Positions 5,268 to 48,160 of a stretch of 64,000 nt of DNA are shown piece after piece; within the stretch, counting starts at the first letter, position 1, and each line of letters begins with the position of its first letter. The notes below the pieces were generated by a model. It worked only from the letters and a program-made list of their open reading frames with translations, searched no databases and was not told where the DNA came from. This stretch comes from Octopus vulgaris (lineage: Eukaryota): positions 67,022,001 through 67,086,000 of the forward strand of contig OX597832.1 of the NCBI GenBank assembly GCA_951406725.2, written 5' to 3'. The position numbers and the translations under genes are program-made.

Positions 5268-6105
5268 TTATCCTCTGGGCACACCATGTCTTTGATGCAG
5301 TATCATTTGCTTCCTTTGTAACTGTTCTACTGGGAACTCTATTTCAATTGCCCCTATATTCCACTTGATGCCTTCTGATACTATTCTCAAACACACAACA
5401 ATAATTGGCACCATTTTCACCTGCTTTATTTTCCATAACCGGGTTGTTTCGTACTTCAGAAGGTTGTATCTATCTATCTTTCCGTCTTCCTTGTTGAATA
5501 TTTGTAGGTCAAAGAGGCATGCAACATCAACTATATAGCATGTGTCATGCACCTTGTCCAACACTACTAGGTCCTGTTTGTTATGCTCTAGCACATGATC
5601 TGTTTGGATTAGGAAATCCCAAGGGGTGTTTCTAGTGCCGGACTCCACCACTTTCTGCGGTTTGTGCTCAATCCACATCTTGCCTCTCTCTAGACCCCAA
5701 TTTTCTCACACTATACCAATGTAGCACTTTCGCTACCCGGTCGTACCGCCACAACTTGTACTTGTTTCGGGCAAGTTTAATGCCTCTGTTTGTCATATGG
5801 TCAATGGTTTCATCCACTCAATTGCAGATGCGGCACAGCGGAGACACTTGCTCATACCAAAGGGTGACCTTCTAGTGCCTGGCCAAAGCTTTGTCCTTCA
5901 CTGCCACTATAATATTTTCGATCTCTTTTTAGGGATCCTTTCATCAGTGAAAACCACCTATTTTTTCCAGCAACTTCTGTTGTGGCTACATGGAAATGAA
6001 TGTGTATTCCCTTCTTGCATAATTCTTCTTCATGTCCTCTTTGTACTTCTTCCTTTGTTTTCCCTTTTTTTCAGTTCTCAATACTTCCTCTTTCTTAAAT
6101 GCAAC
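5268..6105 (-). mobile_element. R4/Dong LINE fragment: zinc knuckle plus restriction-like endonuclease (pseudogenised)
   Basis: ORF 5268..5678 reads WDFLIQTDHVLEHNKQDLVVLDK..CYIVDVAC.FD..KE..KIDRY..L.YE..RLW..VKMVPIIV, an RLE consensus. A degenerate ETIDH..LA..RYD.VAKVLHW lies upstream. The 5' end abuts a (TAA)n tract. Confidence 0.88.
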
Positions 6106-7354: not shown

Positions 7355-7969
7355 CTATATGTGTATATATATACACATATATCAATATACATGCACACAC
7401 ACACAGGCGCACATATATATACACACAAATATATGGTGAAATTATTTTTCTATGTGTGGGAAATATCATAAATGTCGATAAATTTTTTTATTGTACCCAT
7501 GGAAACAGTTTTCAATTTAAATCAGGAAATAAATAGAGCTTTGATAAATTGTATTTTAATATATCGACTGTGGAGATTTTTATTGAGGAGGTTTGATTAT
7601 AAAATATATCTATTATAGCGCCGCCTATTATGTCAAACGGGAAATTACTACAGAGTGTTATATTATGACGTCAGCGATACATTTCACACTTGCTTCATAC
7701 AAAGTAGCAAGGATATTCTCATTTGAGCAGGTTAAACAAATAGATAAATAGATTTACTTCCGCTGCAGTGACTTAGTAGACAGAACACATACATTGAAAC
7801 CGCTCTAAATACTAATGCGTTCATACATACATACACACAGATATACATATACGTACGCATAGAGTTATGTATGTGTATTTGAGTCTGTATGTGTATATGT
7901 ATGTCTTCGTTAACGTACGTATATGTATATATCTTCATATATATGTATATATGGGCATATACATATGGC

Positions 7970-8000
<31 letters not shown>

Positions 8001-8204
8001 ACGGGAAGCTTTATGAAAATAGACAAAAGACGAAGGCAGGTGGAAAACAAACAAACAATTGTATTAGTATGGCGCTCAGGAAATATAAATAAAACAAGAC
8101 TTTAACGTTTCGAGCCTACGCTCTTCAACAGAAAGATACACATAGAAAAAAAACACAGAAAGAAGGAGAGAAAAAAATGCATGCAGTAACTAACGAATCA
8201 ACAT
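8001..8204 (-). mobile_element. Penelope-like LTR-type repeat, family A copy 1, with hammerhead variant
   Basis: Four homologous ~200 bp copies, each with the same end fused to (TA)n. Minus strand reads tcttt-CTGTTGAA-gagc gtag gctc-GAAA-cg-TT-aaag. Confidence 0.7.
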
Positions 8205-8214
8205 ATATATATGT

Positions 8215-8438
8215 ATGTCCCAGGTTGAGTCGGGGTTAACGACATTAAATAAGGTAGTCAATACATAGCAGAGTAAATTAATTTATTTGATAGAAGGAGC
8301 TTCTACGGGACTAGAACTGTTTCATTCAAAGAAATCATCAGGAGCTTCCTGATGATCTCTTTTGAATGTAAATTAATTTATTTGATAAAGGAGTTTCTAG
8401 TCCTGTAAACTCCTTCTATGAAACTGTTCTAGTCCGTA

Positions 8439-8441
<3 letters not shown>
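8215..8441. mobile_element. Rearranged fold-back element with hammerhead remnants on both strands
   Basis: Palindrome centre atcatcaggagcttcctgatgat. The pieces reconstruct ggagcttc-CTGATGA-stemII-GAAA-cag..ctg-TA-gaagctcc. Confidence 0.6.
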
Positions 8442-8507
<66 letters not shown>

Positions 8508-8515
8508 CCTTTAAT

Positions 8516-8775
8516 GTATCTGAGAGATACCAACACGCTGGAAATAGCAGCAAAGTGTTGACTCTAAAACCGCATTAAATGTTCATACAGCTCCAGGTGA
8601 TGTATGCACATTTAATGTGATTTTAGTGTCAAGTTTTGCTATTTACATCGTGGTTGTATCTCTTAGATACCCTAAATTATAATTTTAATAATAATTAATT
8701 ATTACCTTTGAAGGTTTTTATTCCCAAGCTGGCCACTTGATAAGATCGATATTTAAATTAACGATCTTATCCTTA
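8516..8775. repeat. Fold-back element (arms ~8516-8590 and ~8599-8670) plus one-sided tail, between (TA)n tracts
   Basis: gtatctgagagatac...cattaaatgttcataca is the imperfect reverse complement of tgtatgcacatttaatg...gtatctcttagatac. Confidence 0.85.
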
Positions 8776-8776
8776 T

Positions 8777-8850
<74 letters not shown>

Positions 8851-8864
8851 TATATGTGTATATA

Positions 8865-8922
<58 letters not shown>

Positions 8923-8925
<3 letters not shown>

Positions 8926-9108
8926 GGAAAGTTTACGAAAATAAACAAAAGACGAAGGCAGGTGGAGTACAAACAAACAAATGTATTAATATAGCACTCA
9001 GGAATAGAAAAAGTATTTTACGTTTCGAGTCTACGCTCTTCGACAGAAAGATACACAGAAAAATAACAAGGAGAGAAAAAATGCGTGTAGGATCTAACGA
9101 TCTATCAT
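8923..9108 (-). mobile_element. Family A copy 2
   Basis: Homologous to 8001-8204; motif CTGTCGAA-gagc gtag actc-GAAACGTA on the minus strand. Confidence 0.7.
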
Positions 9109-9666
9109 ATATATATATATATATATATGTATATGTATCTTTGTATGTATATGTATGAATATATATATGATTGCATATACTTGTATATTTGTACATATAT
9201 ATATGTATATATGTGTATATATATATATATATGTGTGTGTGTGCCTGTGTGTGTACGAACACATTTCGCGTAGACCTTGTGATTCTAAGGGCGTGGTGTA
9301 GAAATCAATATGCATATACATCTGAACGATGAGTTAATCGATTACAGATCGGTTATAAGAAACAAATGACAAGAATAATTCACTTACAACTGTTTACATT
9401 ATATATGTCAAAGACATTTAGTTGTTAATAATCCCTTTGCGACGGTTTTCACACCCCTTTCTGAGGCGTTACTTAGAGTTCATCAAAACCACATGAAGTA
9501 GCCCTGTCCAAGGACTCAAGAGATTAATATCCGGATGATGATTATACTTCAAAATTTATATAATGATTCTTTACAAATATTTCAAATAAATGAATAACAT
9601 TGGAAATACCTAGTAAGGGGTTTCGTGGGCCTTATAATATTGCAAAATATAAATGCATATCAATAA

Positions 9667-11569: not shown

Positions 11570-11910
11570 AGTGTCCGCTCACTCTCTATTACTTGGTACA
11601 TACAGTATGTCTGCGTCACTTTCGGGGTAGAGAATCCCATATCTAGTCAGCAACTTCCTTGTCTTTTTGTCTAAGCTGTTTAGTTCATCTACTGTCCGTG
11701 CTATTACCCCTGCTCAATATCTAAGGAGTGAAATCGCCCAGGTGTTGATGGCTTCAATCTTATTCCGTCCTTTTAATTCCGTCTTAAATATCAGTCTCAA
11801 TCTGCGCAAATACTTCACCTTAAATTTTTGCGTCATTTCTTTCTCCATCAATTTATTCATTTCCAGTATCTGCAAGTACTTATGGCCCGTCCTTTCTATA
11901 TGCTTTATAT
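11570..11910 (-). mobile_element. R4/Dong LINE fragment, RT C-terminal (thumb) region
   Basis: Minus translation KYLRRLRLIFKTELKGRNKIEAINTWAISLLRY*AGVI..DELNSLDKKTRKLLTRYGILYPESDADILYVP. Confidence 0.85.
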
Positions 11911-11924
11911 TAATATTAACAATA

Positions 11925-11992
<68 letters not shown>

Positions 11993-12059
11993 TTTTTATT
12001 ATTTAGTAGCTTTATTTTTATGATTCATTGCTATGATTATGAGCTGTGGTTACTTTTGG

Positions 12060-14153: not shown

Positions 14154-14517
14154 CCCGTAAAGAGAAAAGCAACTAGTTTTAAATCTCTGAGCGTGAAATA
14201 TATAGTAACAGTGCCGTACAGTAAAGTCTATTTGCCAACGCAACATGGCATTCCTACGTCGGACGATGTTACTAAATATTAGCCACATTTAAACATCATT
14301 TCCAGCTGGGTACAGATATATGGTCTCTATCCGTATACTGTGAACGAGAGAATCTACTGCTCCAGTTGCAAAATAAGTTTTCCTGGGGCTAAAAATTATT
14401 AACATCGACCTACTTAGTACTGCCACATTGTGTAGGTAAATAGAATTTACTGCACGGTACTGTACTACATATTTCTCCCTCAGAGATTTAAAACTAGTTA
14501 TTTTTATCTTGTGTGGG
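14154..14517. mobile_element. MITE-like or fold-back element with ~80 bp inverted arms
   Basis: aactagttttaaatctctgag..gaaatat.tagta.cagt.ccgt.cagtaaa.tctattt is inverted at 14438-14517. Its interior repeats 13874-14010. Confidence 0.75.
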
Positions 14518-14660: not shown

Positions 14661-14663
<3 letters not shown>

Positions 14664-14763
14664 AAATGGATAAATGAATTATCTTGTTACGGATTATTCA
14701 AAAGATAACCGATACCTGGGTAGCAAGAATCACAACAGAAAAATCACGGTTGAGGTTACGACC
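14661..14763. mobile_element. (TA)n-anchored repeat, family B copy 1
   Basis: aatgaattatcttgtta.gga..attc...gatacctgggt.gcaa is shared with 43317-43425 and has the same left end at (TA)n. Confidence 0.65.
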
Positions 14764-14767
14764 ATAT

Positions 14768-14828
<61 letters not shown>

Positions 14829-14829
<1 letters not shown>

Positions 14830-15025
14830 CGGGAAGGTTTACGAAAATAAACAAAAGACGAAGGCAGGTGGAATACAAACAAACAAATATTTGTATGGTG
14901 CTCAGGAATAGAAATAAAACAAGTCTTTTACGCTTCGAGCCTACGCTCTTCGACAGAAAGATACACAGAAAAGAAACAAGGAGAAAAAAAAAATTGCGTG
15001 TAGGGGCTCACGATCCAACATGGCG
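14829..15025 (-). mobile_element. Family A copy 3
   Basis: Homologous to the other copies; the hammerhead GAAA is mutated to GAAG. Confidence 0.7.
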
Positions 15026-15033
15026 TTTTTATA

Positions 15034-15226
15034 TATATATAAAAACTTACTTGGAGAAAAGAAACGAAACGATGCGAGGGCGCTCAGTCAGAAAATAAAT
15101 TAATTAAAAAAATATATGCATACATATATACCTATATGTACGTGCTTACATCTATATTTATATATACTATGACTGAGCGCCCTCGCGTCGTTTCGTTTCT
15201 TTTCTCCAAGTAAGTTTTTATATATA
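15034..15226. repeat. Fold-back element with near-perfect ~57 bp arms
   Basis: aaaaacttacttggagaaaagaaacgaaacgatgcgagggcgctcagtca versus tgactgagcgccctcgcgtcgtttcgtttcttttctccaagtaagttttt. Confidence 0.92.
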
Positions 15227-20455: not shown

Positions 20456-20516
20456 AGTTTTTCAATGACTGAAATAACAATTCATTGAAATACGACATTT
20501 CATGTGAAGCAACCTA

Positions 20517-20587
<71 letters not shown>

Positions 20588-20850
20588 GTTGTTTAACATG
20601 AAACGCATTTTAATGACGTGTTATTTCAGCCATTGAAAAACTCAGTTATTGTATACTTTGCATTTAATCTTGACACTTTTTCTTTCCCAAAAATATTGGT
20701 ATACAAAATTCGTACCCGCAGACCTTATCAAAATGATAACAACCAAACTATATTGATTTTCTCGCATGTGTACAAACTGGTTCATTCTATAGCGGAAGCT
20801 GTACGGCATATCAGTCGGGCCTCTGGTAATGGTTTTGTTGATTTTCAGAA
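20456..20850 (+). mobile_element. Two back-to-back mariner-type termini across (TA)n, with a remnant of the transposase N-terminus
   Basis: ...gcaacctaaTA (TA)n TAttaggttg... with ~60 bp inverted arms. Downstream translation YKLVHSIAEAVRHISRASGNG resembles the mariner first HTH. Confidence 0.6.
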
Positions 20851-21740: not shown

Positions 21741-21778
<38 letters not shown>

Positions 21779-21810
21779 ATCTATCTATATATATATATAT
21801 ATATATATCT

Positions 21811-21846
<36 letters not shown>

Positions 21847-21847
<1 letters not shown>

Positions 21848-22043
21848 GGGAGAGGTTACGAAAAAAACAAAAGACGAAGACAGGTGGTGTACAAAACAAA
21901 CAGATGTATTATTATAACGCTCAGGAATAGAAAAAGTCTTTTACGTTTCGAGGCTACGCTCTTCTACAGAAAGGGACACAGAAAAAGCAAGGAGTGAAAA
22001 AAATGTGTGTAGTGGCTAACGATCTATCATGGCGACCATTGCC

Positions 22044-23557: not shown

Positions 23558-23591
<34 letters not shown>

Positions 23592-23600
<9 letters not shown>

Positions 23601-23850
23601 GTGACATTTATTCGGTAGCTAAGATAAAACTCTGAGTTTCGGATGCCGAGGTGGAAATCCACACCACCATCTCTTCAGTTATGGCCGGATAACTGAAGAG
23701 ATGGGGGTGTGGATTTCCACCTCGGCATTCGAAACTCACAGTTTTATCTTGGCTACCGAATAATTGTCACATATTATATTTACAGATAACTTCCTCTATT
23801 TACATAATATTGAGGTATCTTTCTTTTGTTATCTTAACGTTTTTAGCAAT
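23592..23850. mobile_element. Fold-back element (arms ~90 bp, 6-nt loop) with a hammerhead in each arm and a one-sided tail
   Basis: Near-perfect inverted repeat 23592-23779 centred on ggccgg; flanked by (TA)n. Confidence 0.9.
23687..23749 (+). ncRNA. Type I hammerhead motif (mirror copy on the minus strand at ~23622-23682)
   Basis: ggataa-CTGAAGA-gatg..catt-c-GAAA-ctcacag-TT-ttatct. The minus copy has perfect gatg/catc and stem III actcagagt. Confidence 0.7.
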
Positions 23851-23862
23851 ATATATATATAT

Positions 23863-24143
23863 ATAAGATGATTGAAATCAAAATAAGCAACAAGGATATC
23901 CAGAGGTAATGCTGTACGAACGTTTCATGCGACTCCATTTATTTGAACAATGCAATCATTTCATTACATCAATTTAAATGATTGCATTTTTTAATTAAAC
24001 GGAGTCGCATGAAACGATCGTACTGCATTACCTCTGATTATGATTGTTGCTTATTTTGATTTTAATCATCTTATTTTGAAATTGTAAGAATAATACCATG
24101 CTAAATACCGGTGCCTCAACTTAAGTACCATGGTCATCTGAAT
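23863..24143. mobile_element. Fold-back element, family C copy 1 (3' half of a hammerhead only) plus tail
   Basis: Arms 23863-23962 and ~23975-24074; gcat-GAAA-cgatcg-TA-ctgca at 24007-24027; homologous to 46797-47212. Confidence 0.85.
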
Positions 24144-25761: not shown

Positions 25762-26709
25762 TCAGGCTGAGTTAAAGGTAAGCAACGTTTCGAAACATGA
25801 AATTCATCACAATATATTTCAACAATGCGGACATTTTATTCATCAAAGTAAGTGCCATTACAATCAACACCTTATTGCCAACGAGTTACAAGTTGGTTTA
25901 TTCCGGTAGCATAAAAAATCTGGGCGTCTGGAGCTAATGAACTCTTCGAACGCACTTTCAGCATCGGTTTAATTTTTCAACTCCTTCTCTCAGAGGAGAC
26001 CATCAAAGTGCTTCAAAAAGTGATAGTTGGTAGAAAGGTCGGGAGAATAAACTGGGTGAGGAAGAACTTCTGGAACGTCATTAGTGAAAAGTCTCTTTGA
26101 GCATTGTCGTTAAGAATGATTGGCCCTCTTCTGCTGGCCAGTCTAGGACAGAGGAGTAGCAGTCTTTCGTCCATTTTGGTAATTTCATGGCAACATATTG
26201 CTGCAGTAATGTTTTTGATTTTCGTTTTTGATTTTCCGATCGCATACAAATGGTTGCTGCCAGTTTTCTAACTTGAAGAATGTTTGCCAGTTCTCGGCGA
26301 CGACCTTAAATTGATTGTCATCGATAACAATGGGCATCCACTACGCTCACGATTTCCAAGGCTCAAGTCTCCACTGTGAAATCGTTTGAACCATTTTGGA
26401 GCTGACCACTCACTGGTTGTTTCCTCACTAACCCTTTTGCTGATATCGCGTGCAGTTTCAGCTGCTTTAAGTAACTTTTTTGAAGTTGAATAGCAAAAGT
26501 ATTCGAATAACGCGCTTTGACAGTTCCATTTCAGATGATTGTAACAACAGTGAAAAAATATCAATATTAATTCATTGATGTATTTGAGAAAGTCTATTTC
26601 TGTATAATCAGTCAACTGCCAAATAATGCTTTATTAATACAAAGCTCTGCACAAGTCCAGTACAAATACTTCATGGTTCGAAACGTTGCTTACGTTTTAC
26701 TCAACCTGA
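25762..26709 (-). mobile_element. Internally deleted mariner DNA transposon with TIRs and TA duplication
   Basis: TIR tcagg.tgagt.aa..gtaagcaacgtttcgaa.catgaa at both ends, each flanked by TA. Minus translations ETARDI..WFKRFHSGDLSL..RERSG.P and ILNDNA. Confidence 0.92.
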
Positions 26710-29381
26710 TATTTTCTTGCCCAATATAGAACTTCCTTAGTCCGCAATACTCATATAATGTTGCACACCACTAGCAGCGAGTGGTATCACCTGCTTTACG
26801 AAGCACTACACTAGGATCGTATTAATAAGCGAATGCAAGTTAGTTGAGAAAAATTGTACAATTCTCAGTGCTAATATATCCTTATACATTACTTTTTTTC
26901 CCTTTTAAAATATTTGATTAGAATTAAGAATGAAGACCCAAACTATACGAGTAAATAGTTTCGTCGGTGACATCGCTCTCCTCTTTGTGGGGAACTGAAA
27001 GAAATGCAACGTACAAGGAAATAAATTTTGTCACACTTCTTGATATTTAATCAGTGGCTTATATAGATGTATTTCACGAAAAACCTGTATTAGACCACGT
27101 CATGATGTTCACATGCTGGAGAAATTGTTTAGAAAATTGTTGCTCATCTCTCAGCAAAATCTTCCTCAGAAGAGATGCAATAAATGTCATTTAAACTCTC
27201 TTAAGGCATACTGAATTATAATAACAGTAAACAGACGATGCTATCATACCCTCATGTACGATGTGTATCTTAAAAATTGGAGAACAAGTAGTTACTATTA
27301 TAATACTGTTAAATATAGATCACTGTTGATATTGTGCAATATTAAACAACACTACTTAACCTATTGCTTCCTCGATTACTTATTGGACATTCTTAATTGA
27401 TTTTATAGAAATACATATAAATATTATGTATTAACTCCTTTACCAACAATATTTACAACTGCAAAGTAATGTTGTAATATTTGATAACATTATTAATACT
27501 TTATAATTATTATTTAGGAGAAGAGCAAGATGTTTTGACAGGGTAAGGGATCATGATAATAGAATGAAGTACTAAAGTTTTTTTTAAGATTAGGAATACG
27601 TAACAACAAAAGGCGGACATGTCGGGAAAGTGATTCCAAAAGATCTACTCAATCAGAACGAATATATCGATAGGTAGATAGACTATGCTTCAGCAAGTAT
27701 TGGCAAACTCGAGGGAGTTTCAGCTTGTTAGTTCCTAATCTGCTAATATTTGCAGCTATGTCTCTTTCAACCCGTTCAAAAAGCAAGATAAATTGGATAA
27801 TATCTGTCCACTATATAACAACATAAAAGAAAATAAGGCCATGGTTTAATGCCTCTTATCCGATGTCAGTTTGATCTGGGTTGAGACTACGCAAAGCATC
27901 GATAAACTGAAAACGGTTAATAAGTAAACCCTGATTGAGCTGTGATAACAAAAAAGAAAAACATTGTTTTATGAAAGCTTACAAAAATATCAAATATTAG
28001 AAAAAACAGTTTTTAAATAAATGGATTCACAATCATATAAATCAGGGAGTTAGGACAAACCATGCAAATTATGCTGAAGTTAACGTGATATTCATAAGAT
28101 ATATGACAGAAAAATAAAGACTAAAAAAAAGAAAACAAAAACGAAGCGCAGAGTAAGTCAAACAACAATAAATGAAGTATAACAAAAACAAAACGTACTG
28201 TATGGCAGAAGCAAGCTTTTATGTCTAGAGTAGTCTACACTGAACACATATGCTACAACGTCAACATGATGAATGTGTAATTAAATGAAGTGTAATGCCG
28301 TCAGAAAAGAATGAAAATAAAACTGTATATCACATTCTGTTGCAAAACCATAATCCTAAAGCTGATATTGGTAGGGTATAATTTTCTCATGCACAACGTG
28401 TCATAGATTCATTATAAATATAGCCCAATTACAAGCTAACTATTCAGTTTACAAAAGAAGAAAGAAAAAAAAGCTGGTTTAGCAGCATCGAAACAGAGAA
28501 TTATTAAGTAATAAGAAAGTGAAAAAGAAAATAATACAGCCTTCACGTAAATATTTTTTTTCAAAATAAATGTTCCCAAGATGTAATCTTTCTTTTTTTT
28601 ATCAATATAGCGTTCCTCACCTAATCACGTACAAATCATCATGTAACTCGACTGTGGACAAAATTTTGGTGGAGAAGAATATAAAAAGGGGGAAACGGGA
28701 GCATATTAAAAAGAAAAGGAATGTATGTTGAGAATGGAAGGGGAAAAAGAAGGATATCAATTTTCTCATTGAATACTGACATCGTCAATGACACACATTT
28801 ATACATGAAACCGGCATATACGTTAATATGCGAACACAACACATGCTCACATATGTGTGTGTGTATGTATGCATATGTCTATGTATGTGCATGTGTGCGT
28901 GTGCGTATATACACATGCATTCATACATACATATACATATATATATACATTTATATATATGTGTGTGTGTGTGTGTGTATACATATATATATCTACATAT
29001 ATGTATATATATGTATAGATGTATATACATGAATATACGGAGGTTCAAGGTCATAGGCTGGTTATGAAGGCGTTGACGCTAGAGCTGTGAAATCTTGCTT
29101 GCATTATTTTCCGATCTGTTACTGATAATTCCATTCTTTTGCGCGTAGAACAACTCAGATTTGACCGTTCAAAGAACACTTCAAATGTAATTATTAGGTC
29201 GTCAAGTATGACATTTGTAGAAGGTGTATGATAAACTTTGAAAGCTGCTCGTTTTGCGCGACAATTATAATTAGGCAATCTTTATTTTTTGTTAGAATGC
29301 GGACAAATATATTTCTTTATTCTAACTCATTTTGCCCTTTATGAAGTATTTATAAATCGTTTTCGCTATTTTTGTTTAGAG

Positions 29382-29952
29382 ATGGATAAGTCAGAATTTC
29401 GTACAGTTATGAAATATGAGATCTTGGAAAATACAGCATCACAGACAGCTCGGAATATTAATGTCGTATTTCATTCTAATGTTATTACAGCAGGGAGTAT
29501 CAAATTCTTTTGCAAAATTTTATTCTGGTAACTTTGACCTCACAAATGAGCAACGCAGTCGACCAGAAAGAAAGGTAGATAATGACGAACTGAAAACCAC
29601 CGTCAAGTCAGATCCATCTCAAAGTGCTCGTGAATTATCGCTGTTGTTTGATATTAGCAAGCAAACAATATTGACTCACCTAGTTCAAATCGGTAAAGCG
29701 AAAACGTTGGATAAGTGGGTTCCACATGAACGCAATGAAAATCAGGAACAGCAACGTTTGCAAGCCTGCATTATGCTATTGTCTCGTCACAAAAATTGAG
29801 TCATTTTTTAATCGAAATGTAACATGATGAGAAATGGATGTAATACAACAGCCGTAAACGTTCAGCACAATGGTTGGACAAAGTCAAGAGACCAAACTGC
29901 AGCCAAAAAGCAAAATTCCTCTAAAGAATCTGATGGTGTGTATTTGGTGGTG
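29382..29952 (+). pseudogene. Mariner transposase, 5' portion, frameshifted and truncated
   Basis: MDKSEFRTVMKYE..TARNIN; SGNFDLTNEQRSRP; WVPHE motif; decayed TxDEKW; MVCIWW. Confidence 0.9.
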
Positions 29953-30216
29953 AATTCCGCTGTTTCCGTGGAAGCAATTTCAACTATTAGTTGACGAAAT
30001 GGGTGGAAGAGAAGAAAGCTAATGCGTTGAACGTACGTGCGTGTATGTAAAATATTTCGTTATATCTATATTCCACAACACAGAAATACATAAAAACAGA
30101 ACAGGCACAGACAAGAACAAGCAAGCACGCACGCACGTACAACGCATTAACTTTTTTCTCCTCCTCCCATTTCGTCAACTGACAGTTGACACTATCTCCA
30201 CGGGAACAGCCGAATT
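29953..30216. mobile_element. MITE-like fold-back element with ~90 bp arms
   Basis: gctgtttccgtgga..agttgacgaaatggg..aatgcgttg.acgt.cgtgcgtg is inverted at 30127-30216. Confidence 0.8.
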
Positions 30217-32650: not shown

Positions 32651-33385
32651 AAGGCGGTGTGCTGGCAGAAACGTTAGCACGCTGGGTGAAATGCTTAGCT
32701 GTATTTCGTCTGTTTTCATGTTCTGAGTTCAAATTCCGCCGAGGTCGACTTTCCCTTTCGGGGACGATTAAATAAGTACCAGTTATGCATTGGGGTCGAT
32801 ATAATCGACTTAATCCGTTTGTCTGTTCTTGTTTGTCCTCTCTGTGTTTAGCCCATTGCGGGTAGTAAATAAATAATTATTTCTTCTGCCGCTACATTCT
32901 GAGTTCCAATTCCGCCGAACACGACTTTGACTTTCATCCATTCGGGGTCGATTAAATAAGTACCAGTTACGCACTGGAGTCGATATAATCGACTTAATTC
33001 CTTCGTTTGTCCTTGTTTGTCCCCTCTGTGTTTAGTCCCTTATGGGTAGTAAAGAAATTGGTATATCGTCTGCCAACACGTTCTGCGTTCAAATTCCGCC
33101 GAGGTCGACTTTGCCTTTCATCCTTTCGGGGTCGATTAAATAAGTACCAGTTACGCACTGGGGTCGATATAATCGACTTAATCCGTTTGTCTGTCCATGC
33201 TTGTCTCTTCTATGTTTAGCCATTTGTGGGTAGTAAAGAAATAGGTATTTCGTCTATCTCTACGTTCGACTTCGCCTGTCATCCTTTCGGGGTCGATGAA
33301 TTAAGTAGCAGTTGCATACTGGGGTCGATCTAATCGACTCGTGCCTTCCCCCAAAATTTTGGGTCTTCTACCTAGAGTAGAAAAT
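32651..33385 (+). mobile_element. SINE with an internal ~180 bp unit multimerised about 4 times
   Basis: Head aaggcgg..ctggcagaaacgttagcacg, then repeated gttctgagttcaaattccgccgaggtcgac..taagtaccagtta.gcactggggtcgatataatcgactta..gggtagtaaagaaat. Confidence 0.92.
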
Positions 33386-40329: not shown

Positions 40330-41589
40330 CAGGGTAGGGAAGCAAAATTTAAAATGAACGTTAAGTTGTTTTTCTCAGCAGGAACTAAGTCAATTGTTTT
40401 GGAACCTAGCATATATTGATGTATTACCTTTTCAGAAGCGTTTGCCCATATGAGTAATCAGAAAGGCAAACGTCAAAGAGTGTGTGATTTGCTGAATGCA
40501 CGCGTCACACAAAAGGAGATTTCAAGAATAGTTGGAGTGTGCATAAAGAATGTTTATAACGTAAAGAATAGAATGACTATGAGCAAAACTATTACGAGGA
40601 AGTCTGGAAGTGGGGGAATCAACAAAAAATGTACCAACGATTTTATTAAAGCTCTCAAATACCAAATCATAAGGGATCCAGCTAAATCCACGAGGAAAAT
40701 GGCAATTGAACATGAGGTAAACAACAAGACCATTACAAATGCAGTAAAATATGATTTGAGGTTAAAATCTAACACAAGAACACCAAAACACTTGTTGACA
40801 ACAGCTATGAAGGAAAAGAGATTGGAAAGATGCAATAAATTTTTTACATGGTTCAAGAAAATGTCCCCCATTGTAACGACCTTCTCAGATGAAAAGATCT
40901 TCACTGTCGATACTGTTCTGAACCGTAGAAATGACAGATCTATCGCCAAATTGACAGATGAATTTAAGGGGAAGATTCAAAACAAAACATCTTCCTCAAG
41001 TTATGGACTTTTGGTGTTGTGGCTTCCGATGGAAGGAAAATGTTTATAGAATTCTACAAAGCTGATGAAAAGATCAATGTTAATACTTACTACAAGACTC
41101 TGAGATACCAGGTATTGTCATGGCTTAAAGCAAACTAATGGTAATTATGTTTGGACACAGGATGGTGCTCCAGCCCGCACAGCTAGAAAAATACAAGATA
41201 TCTGTAAATCCAACATTAGCAATTTTTTAAAATCCTGTTTATGGCCGCCTTCTAGCCCAGATCTAAACCCTCTGGATTATGCTATTTGGGGTGTTTAGAA
41301 CATGCTACCAATAGAACATCACGCAGCAGTGTCGACTCTCTTAAAGATACTATTAAAGAAGAATGGAAGAAGTTGTCTCCCGAACATTTCAGGAACACTT
41401 GTGCAAGTTTCAGGAAGCGTGTGAAGGCAGTTATTGAGAAAGAAGGAGGACAAATAGAATAAAAACATTTTTTATTATGTGAATTTTCTTCTGGCGAATA
41501 AATTCTCATGACTTTCAATAAACTAATTGATCATACACTGTCTTTGAATCCCTGCCTCAAAATATTGTAAATGTTGCTTCCCCACCCTG
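40330..41589 (+). mobile_element. Full-length Tc1/mariner element, DD37D (maT) family
   Basis: TIRs cagggt(a/g)gggaagcaa.attta.aat at both ends, with TA on each side; about 1.26 kb. Confidence 0.95.
40450..41462 (+). pseudogene. DD37D transposase pseudogene
   Basis: N-terminal HTH, FSDEK, then after frameshifts WTQDGAPA and WPPSSPDLNPLDY. I count 37 residues between the second and third Asp. Ends KEGGQIE*; internal stops. Confidence 0.93.
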
Positions 41590-43022: not shown

Positions 43023-43024
<2 letters not shown>

Positions 43025-43290
43025 TCACTAGAAAAGGCAGCCAAACTCAAACCGCTAAACAGTTGTAATTCTGAAATTGAAAGAGAAATAAAAACGTTTT
43101 TATTTCTCTTTCAATTTCAGAATTACAACTGTTTAGCGGTTTGAGTTTGGCTGCTCTTTCTAGTGAGTCGAATGTCCTATTATGGCCATTCCTTATATTG
43201 TTGAATGTATATTATATAGTCTTTGACTATCTTTTCTTTCTCGCAAGACTGCTGGTAGCGGAGAACTTTTTGCTACCTTTATATTTATTA
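43023..43290. repeat. Spacerless 146 bp palindrome (43023-43168) plus one-sided tail, between (TA)n tracts
   Basis: Centre aaaaacgttttt; the arms differ only at gaaaaggcagcc versus gaaagagcagcc. Confidence 0.95.
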
Positions 43291-43425: not shown

Positions 43426-43453
43426 ATTTGTATGTTTTTTTTTTAATTATAAA

Positions 43454-44788
43454 TATATGAAAGAATGGAGTTGAACGACGAATTAACAAAATTCCTTTAT
43501 TTTCGACATATATTCCTTTGTAAGGAGTGACGTCAAAATGGTTGGCTGTAGAAGATTCTAGAAGGTTCTAAAGGTTCAAGGGTTCAAACGAAGTAGTAGA
43601 AGAGATGCATAAGAAATGGAAGGTGAAAGGGTGCAGGTCAAATGAATGGTGAATTTTCTTTTGTGAATGAGTGTCTGTATGTGTGGCTGTATATAACTGC
43701 ATTAATGTGTATGTGTGTATGTGTGTACGTGATTGTGTTTGTGGATGGGTGGATGTCAGAAAACAGACAGCGGTGAGGTGAACGGTTTGTGTCTGTGTGT
43801 TTGATTGTGCTTACTATAGATAGAGGGAAAGAGAGAGAGAAAGAGAGAGAAAGAGGAGGGCGAGGTATAGGGACAAAGGTAACACATACCTCACTGGATT
43901 GGGTAGTAGTTCTTTGAAAGTATAAAAAGACTTATTTGACTATGGGGGTGAAATATTTAAAAAAAAAGAGTTATATTAATTAAAATTCAAGGGGCTATCT
44001 ATATTAATCATTATTCAAATGAGTGAAAGGTGTATTTTTGGATCTCTCGACGATTGTATTTATTAAAGGGACTTTGGCGAACAAAATATGAAAAAGTTCG
44101 GAATTACAGACGCCACAATGTTTTCTGCCCTTATCAAACGGGAAGGACACCGACAATATGGACCATTCCAGTCAAATAAATCTTTTTATACTTTCAAAGA
44201 ACTGCTACCCAATCCAGTGAGGTATGTGTTACCTTTGTCCCTATACCTCGCCCTCCTCTTTCTCTCTCTTTCTCTCTCTCTTTCCCTCTATCTATAGTAA
44301 GCACAATCAAACACACAGACACAAACCGCTCACCTCACCATTGTCTGTTTTCTGACATCCACCTATCCACAAACACAATCACGTACACACATACAGACAT
44401 TAATGCAGTTATATACAGTCACACACACAGACACTCATTCACAAAAGAAAATTCACCATTCATTTGACCTGCACCCTTTCACCTTCCTATTCTTATGCCT
44501 CTCTTCTACTACTTCGTTTGAACCCTTGAACCTTTAGAACCTTCTAGAATCTTCTACAGCCAACCACAAAGGAATATTTTAAAGAGACACTCATTATCAC
44601 TATGGGCTTCGTGTGAGCAGTCATCTAAAAGTTTTTTGTGCATCTTGATGTTGACATAAATTCCTTGCTTTTCCTGATGAGAAAGCGGCATAATATACTC
44701 CTTATTCCTTCGCAATTAGGAATATGCAGCCTTCGAAACATATGTCGAAAATAAAAGAATTTTGTTAATTCGTCGTTCAACTCCATTC

Positions 44789-44797
<9 letters not shown>
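43454..44797 (+). mobile_element. Penelope-like element remnant with long inverted pLTRs (arms ~43454-43940 and ~44170-44797)
   Basis: Arms of about 0.5-0.6 kb are closely reverse-complementary; the right arm holds an intact hammerhead and ends in (TA)n. Confidence 0.85.
44669..44751 (+). ncRNA. Canonical type I hammerhead ribozyme motif
   Basis: ttttc-CTGATGA-gaa.gc.gcata...tatgc.gc.ttc-GAAA-catatg-TC-gaaaa; all core nucleotides present; predicted cleavage after C44746. Confidence 0.88.
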
Positions 44798-44841
<44 letters not shown>

Positions 44842-46758: not shown

Positions 46759-46795
46759 CATATACATATATCATATATATATATATATATATATA
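46615..46795. repeat. Higher-order repeat: (TA)n-acatatacatatatc, three times
   Basis: The same 15-nt interruption occurs three times within TA. Confidence 0.9.
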
Positions 46796-46796
46796 C

Positions 46797-47212
46797 TCAA
46801 AATAAGCAACAAGGATATCCAAGGTAGTGTAGTACAATCGTTTCATGCTACTTCATTTTATTAAACACTGTAAGTATTAAATTAGTTTTAAAATGTCGAA
46901 CATGCTTCAGCCACATATATAATTTTTTAATTAAACGGACAATGCACATTTTTATACTTATTGAAAGGAGTATAAAAATGTGCATTGTCCGTTATATGTG
47001 GCTGAAGATTGCTCGACATTTTAAAACTGATGTAATACTCACAGCGTTTAATAAGATGAAGTAGTATGAAACGATTGTACTACACTACCTTGGATATCCT
47101 TGTTGCTTATTTTGATTATAATCACCCCCTTTGATTTTATGGATAATACCATACCAAATTCTACAGTTTTTAACTTACGTACCATATTCACCTGAATCTA
47201 AATTTTGCTGTG
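46797..47212. mobile_element. Fold-back element, family C copy 2, with hammerhead and tail
   Basis: Inverted arms span 46797-47115, centred near 46962; the tail shares ataataccat and tacca..tca.ctgaat with 24075-24143. Confidence 0.88.
46997..47084 (+). ncRNA. Type I hammerhead motif (mildly decayed)
   Basis: tgtgg-CTGAAGA-ttgct...agtat-GAAA-cgattg-TA-ctaca. Confidence 0.7.
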
Positions 47213-47552: not shown

Positions 47553-47613
<61 letters not shown>

Positions 47614-47614
47614 T

Positions 47615-48022
47615 GTTTTTGTGTAATGAGATAGTATATTATTAGACCATTTATAGAGAGAATGTTTTACAGATATTTCTAGAATATTAATTAATAATAA
47701 TATCCCTTCATCGGAAACGGTGTGAGAGGAAAAGTTAAGTTATAGTTTCGATGTGATATAAATAGAGGATGACGTGGAGGAAAGAAAATAGATGTAAGAT
47801 ATAACACTACATATCTTACATCTATTTCCTTTCCTCCACCTCACTCTCTATTTATATCACATCGAAACTATAACTTAACTGTTCCTTTCACACCGTCTCC
47901 GATGAAGGGATATTATTATTAATTTTATTAATTAATATTCTAGAAACACCTGTAAGACATTCTATCTATAAATGCTCTAATATCTATACCACCTTGTTTT
48001 TTTGTCTCATTACACAAACAAT
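47615..48022. mobile_element. Fold-back element with ~190 bp arms and a hammerhead variant
   Basis: Centre gtaagatat-aacactac-atatcttac; a further 3'-end fragment lies at 47224-47285. Confidence 0.9.
47895..47958 (+). ncRNA. Type I hammerhead variant (CCGATGA core)
   Basis: gtct-CCGATGA-agggatatta...taatattcta-GAAA-cacctg-TA-agac; CCGATGA is present in both arms. Confidence 0.7.
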
Positions 48023-48160
48023 TTATATATACACGCGCTGACATAGAACCAACGTTGAACCCTTTATTCGCAATATTACCGAATCTGGAACGTAACTATG
48101 GTCTGTCTATAGTACTTATTCAGCATTACCTGACACCTTTGGGTCTCAGTGACACTATTA

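Follow-up and report, generated by a model that had tools for sequence, protein, structure and literature searches.

A genuine type I hammerhead motif lies on the + strand of the 64-kb stretch of DNA analysed here (the window), in one arm only of a 1.36-kb head-to-head insertion. The insertion is probably a decayed Penelope-like element (PLE), most likely of the Hydra clade, the PLE and Hydra identity of its peptide remnant being assigned by resemblance. At this locus the ribozyme is most likely silent, as we infer from the missing second same-strand copy, the predicted disfavour of the monomer fold, the expected burial of the cleavage site in + strand RNA and the lack of a ribozyme in - strand RNA, where the copy in sense has lost it. 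In vitro, the isolated RNA may nevertheless show slow cleavage as a dimer. Feature coordinates are collected in Table 1.

Table 1. Features at the hammerhead locus and elsewhere in the window
Feature	Position	Strand	Basis or details
Type I hammerhead: proximal stem I, core, stem II, GAAA, stem III	44669..44751	+	Sequence, strict descriptor, and Rfam match below the gathering score
Hammerhead including predicted extended stem I	44651..44769	+	Distal helices 44651-44666 with 44754-44769
Antisense block against cleavage site and stem I 3' strand, on the + transcript	43453..43509	+	
Left copy: longer 5'-truncated copy, ORF end and 3' UTR, ribozyme core deleted	43448..44169	-	
Right arm: inverted 5'-truncated copy, the shorter of the two (3' UTR/pLTR only), ribozyme kept	44170..44803	+	
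Deletion junction, left arm	43509..43510	-	164 nt lost, corresponding to right-arm 44578-44741; 2-nt microhomology
18 nt present in the left arm only, with 8-bp palindrome	43522..43539	-	Lost from the right arm at 44565/44566
(TA)23 run at right 3' end, likely target site	44793..44838	n/a	
ORF C-terminus remnant, 55 residues, W-x15-CxxC-xx-E...N, without CxH	44007..44171	-	Resembles the terminal part of the GIY-YIG endonuclease of the Hydra clade
Head-to-head palindrome by (TA)n, one CUGAAGA hammerhead per arm	23583-23788		Cores 23693 (+) and 23678 (-); scan
Mariner/Tc1-type transposase remnant	26271-26630	-	Pfam HTH_48
Mariner/Tc1-type transposase remnant	29271-29796	+	Pfam HTH_48

The proximal stem I comprises 5 bp (44669-44673 paired with 44747-44751) and is followed by the CUGAUGA core at 44674-44680, a 54-nt stem II (44681-44734) with the closing pair G10.1-C11.1, GAAA at 44735-44738 and a stem III provided by the 8-mer 44738-44745. 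Three stems with CUGANGA, GAAA and NUH, open at stem I, identify the motif as a type I hammerhead. G10.1 adjoins the core directly, so that positions 9 and 10.1 have no unpaired base between them. Since C17 falls on 44746, the predicted cut lies between 44746 and 44747. The 8-mer is self-complementary at 8/8 positions with a predicted homoduplex energy of -7.0 kcal/mol; in the monomer form it leaves 2 bp and a 4-nt loop. The sequence-only reading had described an intact core, a 5-bp stem I, an extended stem II and a palindromic stem III, and all of these were found on the + strand where it had placed them.

With the strict descriptor the hammerhead at 44669 was the sole match in the 64 kb, and none of 200 block-dinucleotide shuffles yielded one. 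The loosest descriptor gave 2 matches in the window, with matches in 2/200 shuffles. A relaxed scan returned five hammerhead motifs, of which that at 44669 is the cleanest; in this respect it deserves its earlier designation as the best candidate in the window for an active ribozyme, its catalysis being predicted only. Rfam gave no match at gathering level over the whole window, and no hammerhead was found at E values up to 5 in the 1.7 kb around the locus. A 161-nt search placed around the motif returned RF00163 (Hammerhead_1) with 25.5 bits and an E value of 1.8e-4. The gathering score of 34 is not reached, which is attributed to the long insert in stem II; the match spans all 45 model positions and the core is identical. 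Unconstrained folding of 44660-44760 was no better than that of shuffled sequences (z -1.2), as expected for a hammerhead motif.

Stem I extends beyond its 5 bp. Past a 2x2 internal loop, pairing resumes at 8 of the following 9 diagonal positions, and beyond a bulge there is another helix of 6 bp. This extended stem I folds better than in 974 of 1000 shuffled flanks, the other 26 folding equally well. The first distal helix has a single mismatch, at 44756, and this is likewise the one arm-to-arm substitution within 44651-44769. The left-arm base at the matching position would pair in the distal stem I, which suggests that the substitution arose in the right copy after insertion.

The arms of the inverted repeat (43448-43941 and 44170-44803) are 228 nt apart and arranged head to head, so that both 3' ends face outwards, the right end continuing into (TA)n. 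They were aligned by affine-gap and exact block comparisons; a default MAFFT alignment misplaced the gap and was discarded. The best automatic alignment spread 28 unique-looking left-arm bases over stem II. In the preferred alignment an 18-nt gap, an exact 12-nt match and one 164-nt gap follow each other, with an ancestral state that is unprovable from two copies. The arm comparison proposed along with the earlier reading bears out its account of the gap: the roughly 160 bp noted as missing at about 43510 measure 164 nt with the junction at 43510/43509, and the absent right-arm segment does take in CUGAUGA through GAAA, leaving the hammerhead core in the right arm only. Because the missing segment stops 5 nt short of C17, each arm still has the cleavage site, the 3' strand of stem I and the 3' portion of stem III. 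A trace of ribozyme cutting was considered for the left-arm deletion and ruled out by this position of the breakpoint, 5 nt upstream of C17. As the 164-nt boundary splits the ribozyme, whose stems I and III pair across it, a left-arm deletion is far likelier than an insertion into the right arm, a reading that we reject. The 18 nt that are confined to the left arm contain the palindrome TGACGTCA, which we take to be a CRE-type site; it has been lost from the ribozyme-bearing arm.

Over 465 aligned nt (exact blocks) 13 substitutions separate the arms (2.8 %), and the right arm shows gaps of its own (18 nt and 6 nt) relative to the left. The core is intact despite this divergence, which is unremarkable given how few bases it has. 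Inverted structures of PLEs are known to trouble assemblies (PMC8557442), and a misassembly of the long inverted repeat would place the ribozyme in both arms. We consider this hardly credible, as the two arms carry those substitutions as well as reciprocal indels, each arm lacking sequence that the other has, and as the junction shows microhomology and the window contains no N. Deletions with microhomology have been described for PLE copies (PMC3846280).

The assignment to a PLE starts from the peptide of 55 residues encoded upstream of the left copy's 3' UTR on the same strand. A phmmer search with this spacer peptide against 1.84 billion protein representatives gave 4 proteins at E values up to 0.001. 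Three of them (P0004, P0006 and P0007) share 45-48 % identity over 40-44 residues with E values from 5e-5 to 3e-4, and map back to the window at 44171-44040 only (E about 2e-9); the fourth, P0005, is repetitive, probably spurious and was excluded from alignments. Pfam gave no match for the spacer peptide or its three relatives. In 190 stop-to-stop and 6 read-through frames of the window neither RT nor GIY-YIG was found by Pfam, which returned two Mos1 HTH matches and one weak, spurious-looking match and nothing else. The locus itself, which is 5'-truncated, lacks the RT domain and the GIY-YIG motif, and the stretch of ORF that would bear the Hydra linker motifs (RWK, DKT and CxCX5C) lies outside the window. 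Word-based protein searches with the + strand frame, the spacer peptide and the 4-sequence alignment gave 0 matches and no full-length relative, searches of PDB and phage sequences with the peptide's relatives gave no match, and an exact 26-nt pattern had 0 matches in bacterial and archaeal genomes.

For the clade assignment, the spacer peptide was compared by eye with Fig. S7 of PMC8557442. In the Hydra rows of this figure CxxC-xx-E is followed by LN in 9/9 cases, and the spacer peptide has the same spacing with IN instead of LN; a W stands 16 residues before the first C in 8/9 rows, as it does in the spacer peptide. By contrast, such a CxxC occurs in 0/9 of the Penelope/Poseidon, Nematis and Neptune rows shown there. 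Scanning all six frames of the window for the full W...CxxC..E..N pattern gives one match, as against 0/300 shuffles, a null that is generous since the pattern was written after the peptide had been seen; the bare CxxC..E..N core was matched in 25/300 shuffles. According to PMC8557442, Hydra-clade traits are CxxC and CxH flanking E and N, insertion at (TA)n and canonical hammerheads. The spacer peptide lacks the CxH after the conserved N, which was possibly lost by decay, as the alignment with P0004 puts a 6-residue gap there.

The arrangement of the copies fits a PLE. PLEs are described as having an inverted, 5'-truncated copy attached at their 5' end (PMC8557442), which is present here, and head-to-head is the most frequent PLE arrangement (PMC3846280); (TA)n targeting and a 3' hammerhead are likewise on record for PLEs and for Hydra elements. 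Penelope-13_HM likewise has an inverted copy with a hammerhead on each strand (PMC8557442). Compared with Hydra-clade PLEs in the same source, the locus keeps only the last ~55 codons without CxH, and its 3' UTR is longer, with ~590 nt from stop to core, and microsatellite-rich. Identity with Hydra-1_Obim was excluded, as both hammerhead and C-terminus differ (PMC8557442). At the ends, the right side abuts (TA)23 and the left side has a short TA stretch only, with 131 nt separating its 3' end from the next long (TA)n run; such TA runs abound in the window, whose DNA is AT-rich and microsatellite-rich. Neither a target-site duplication nor a 30-40 nt tail was identified at the locus. Against the assignment speak the missing RT, GIY-YIG and CxH motifs, the lack of a Pfam match or of a named full-length PLE protein for the peptide, the long stem II, the absence of an identified duplication or tail, and the distance of the left end from a long (TA)n run. 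In the 131 nt that flank the left 3' end, the segment 43317-43409 is ~80 % like a lone fragment between TA runs at about 14662-14759 and could be the 3' end of an older TA-targeting element or a long tail.

A non-autonomous hammerhead repeat, either a non-LTR retrozyme or a SINE-like element, would make the spacer peptide coincidental. Type I hammerheads with a palindromic stem III also define metazoan retrozymes, for which an origin from PLE pLTRs has been proposed (preprint 10.64898/2026.07.22.740005), and the peptide has no Pfam support. The same preprint defines non-LTR retrozymes by tandem units, whereas the locus is head to head, shows no tandem array and retains an ORF remnant. Moreover, three independent proteins match the peptide, which also shows the spacing of the Hydra clade, and we regard such a repeat as very unlikely.

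The hammerhead shares with the metazoan PLE hammerheads of PMC4209133 the type I topology, a 5-bp proximal stem I, G10.1-C11.1, a short palindromic stem III, U-rich 5' and AU-rich 3' flanks and the occurrence as opposite-strand pairs. It differs from them in its very long stem II and the predicted long distal stem I. The unpaired base between positions 9 and 10.1 of the min-HHR consensus given there is absent from the locus, as it is from several Hydra hammerheads in PMC8557442. By hand count, stem II has 10-24 nt in 26 Hydra rows of File S2 of PMC8557442, in comparison to 54 nt here; all three hammerhead families of the window exceed that range, and a long stem II is the one feature that may mark a variant. 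Earlier publications already cover PLE hammerheads and their need for dimers, as well as inverted copies and a Hydra element from Octopus. No literature on the element family of this locus or on variants with a long stem II was found in a search that covered subscription papers thinly.

The folding calculations bear on what the remaining left arm would do to the ribozyme. Positions 43453-43509 are complementary over 57 nt, with 1 mismatch, to 44742-44798, the stretch that contains GUC and stem I's 3' strand. The left arm thus retains the complement of the cleavage site, and fold-back RNA is expected to pair 44744-44751; in the predicted ensemble of 43430-44820 these positions pair with the left arm with P of 0.997-1.0. 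Forcing the hammerhead fold in the presence of the whole left arm costs a computed 19.8 kcal/mol, and 14.6 kcal/mol for an RNA ending at 44760. The penalty amounts to 6.9, 10.7 and 4.7 kcal/mol for RNAs starting at 43530, 43950 and 44170, respectively. Because nearest-neighbour energies undervalue hammerhead cores, only differences with and without the arm count here, and absolute probabilities such as P about 1e-5 are meaningless. By computation, fold-back would mask the cut site, and activity would then need a transcript starting downstream of 43510 together with a partner in trans.

The sequence-only reading had assumed that most of the ribozyme loops out of a fold-back transcript and is free to fold; on such a model it would also cut, the deletion having freed it from antisense inhibition. 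The left arm does lack the complement of CUGAUGA, stem II and GAAAC. However, only the catalytic strand would loop out: the substrate strand is predicted to be paired at the probabilities and penalties given above, the masking block is transcribed first, and in the minimum-energy fold part of stem II may additionally pair with left-arm 43511-43530. Even with most of its antisense partner gone, a hammerhead would not be free while the strand with the cleavage site stays covered. We accordingly abandon this part of the reading, whose chance of being correct appears slight indeed.

Dimer cleavage is implied by the stem III of 2 bp, and the ribozyme probably depends on dimerization, in line with the earlier suggestion of comparing monomer and dimer. 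PLE hammerhead dimers were reportedly the subject of work by Luense et al. In five local contexts the monomer hammerhead lies a computed 5.8-7.4 kcal/mol above the free ensemble. The double-hammerhead dimer was computed to be 2.2 kcal/mol better than two free monomers, and a non-catalytic alternative dimer is 5.2 kcal/mol more stable than the double hammerhead. No second same-strand copy of the 3' segment exists in the window, as nhmmer returns the two opposite arms only. For PLE hammerheads in general, no cleavage of single motifs and low cleavage of dimers were described (PMC4209133), and the need for dimers is echoed in reviews (PMC6765202, PMC6466107). The Anolis PLE ribozyme needed added protein to cleave and proved dispensable for in vitro insertion (PMC11167929).

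Activity at this locus is conceivable for the same element if a transcript started from the spacer or the right arm, at a residual pLTR promoter, and thus lacked the masking block; the ribozyme could then dimerize in trans with other copies of the family or profit from its long stem I together with a protein. The intact core, the fully self-complementary palindrome, the 2.2 kcal/mol gained by the double hammerhead over two monomers, the penalty of only 4.7-10.7 kcal/mol once the left arm's 3' block is missing and the rank of the extended stem I among shuffled flanks are in favour of this, and promoters within PLE pLTRs have been described (PMC6765202). A scan for sigma-70 promoters gave chance-level results with a bacterial model that is not applicable to a eukaryote host. 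On the other side stand the more stable non-catalytic dimer and two competing helices which are predicted to tie up both core and cleavage site in the isolated RNA as well. In addition, the right arm bears its 18-nt deletion just upstream, and its distal stem I is mismatched where the left-arm base would pair. Taken together, activity here is unlikely.

More far-reaching is the idea that the host's PLEs carry a distinct long-armed hammerhead, with stem I of up to ~19 bp, that cleaves efficiently at physiological Mg2+ in the absence of a tandem partner or helper protein. The one-sided deletion would then make cleavage dependent on the start site, masked in read-through RNA and open in RNA from the spacer or right arm. 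We hold this to be distinctly unlikely; if long stems I and II did give an efficient cutter, the locus would be well suited to probing the still open role of PLE ribozymes.

Returning to the preferred reading of a silent ribozyme in a decayed PLE insertion, we propose the following order of events. In one integration event a 5'-truncated - strand copy would have been laid down that comprised the last ~55 endonuclease codons, a 3' UTR of ~700 nt and a hammerhead ~55 nt from its 3' end. An even shorter inverted copy, with (TA)n at its 3' end, would have been joined at 44170 to the 5' end of the first, and the hammerhead was presumably present in both arms originally. Later, the left arm appears to have lost 164 nt by way of the 2-nt microhomology and the right arm 18 and 6 nt, accompanied by 2.8 % drift. 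In the parent element, judged from its family, tandem RNA would be cut after GUC as a double hammerhead with the stems III paired mutually. At the present locus, + strand read-through RNA would instead zip into a long dsRNA with the cleavage site buried.

PLE hammerheads occur by the thousands across animal genomes (PMC4209133). As most likely read, the locus is of little importance among them, adding a probable new Hydra-like family. Read-through RNA would more likely serve as a dsRNA substrate of ~400 bp for editing or silencing than as a ribozyme; Penelope and palindromic repeats are described as heavily edited in PMC5625713.

Further hammerhead palindromes show that this architecture recurs in the window. 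Both hammerheads at 23583-23788 have intact cores, a stem II of 31 nt and weak closing pairs, and the - arm has the same 9-nt stem III as Penelope-3_HM (File S2, PMC8557442). In the palindrome 46792-47120 hammerhead-like motifs lie at 46910 (-) and 47002 (+) with a stem II of 59 nt, one arm showing a core change and the other lacking the closing pair of stem II. This palindrome belongs to one family with that at 23863-24074, which is truncated before the core. The + arm of the palindrome 47604-48031 contains a hammerhead-like core CCGAUGA (U4 to C), and the other arm shows the same change by eye. In the inverted repeat 8225-8440 one CUGAUGA...GAAAC...GUC occurs near 8323 (-); a stem I pairing was not found for it.

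Inverted repeats are dense in the window in general. A 146-nt hairpin (43023-43168, 97 %, no spacer) lies beside (TA)n, 280 nt to the left of the PLE insertion, and the scan found no hammerhead motif in it. Short palindromic elements in which the scan likewise gave no hammerhead motif are situated at 8503-8683, 14160-14510, 15034-15226, 20456-20642 and 29953-30216.

Besides the two transposase remnants of Table 1, we take 40420-41046 (+) to be a further one of the Mariner/Tc1 type, which has no Pfam match. The frames 5271-5705 (-) and 11714-11995 (-) resemble pieces of a non-LTR retrotransposon with a restriction-like endonuclease; Pfam gave no match for frame 5271-5705 (-). A 184-nt tandem repeat with 2.7 copies occupies 32757-33255 and has dispersed relatives near 49.1, 52.6-52.8, 55.4 and 57.0 kb. 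A repeat of ~300 nt that follows (TA)n runs is present in four copies, 73-83 % alike, at 7888-8216, 8846-9120, 14764-15025 and 21744-22034.
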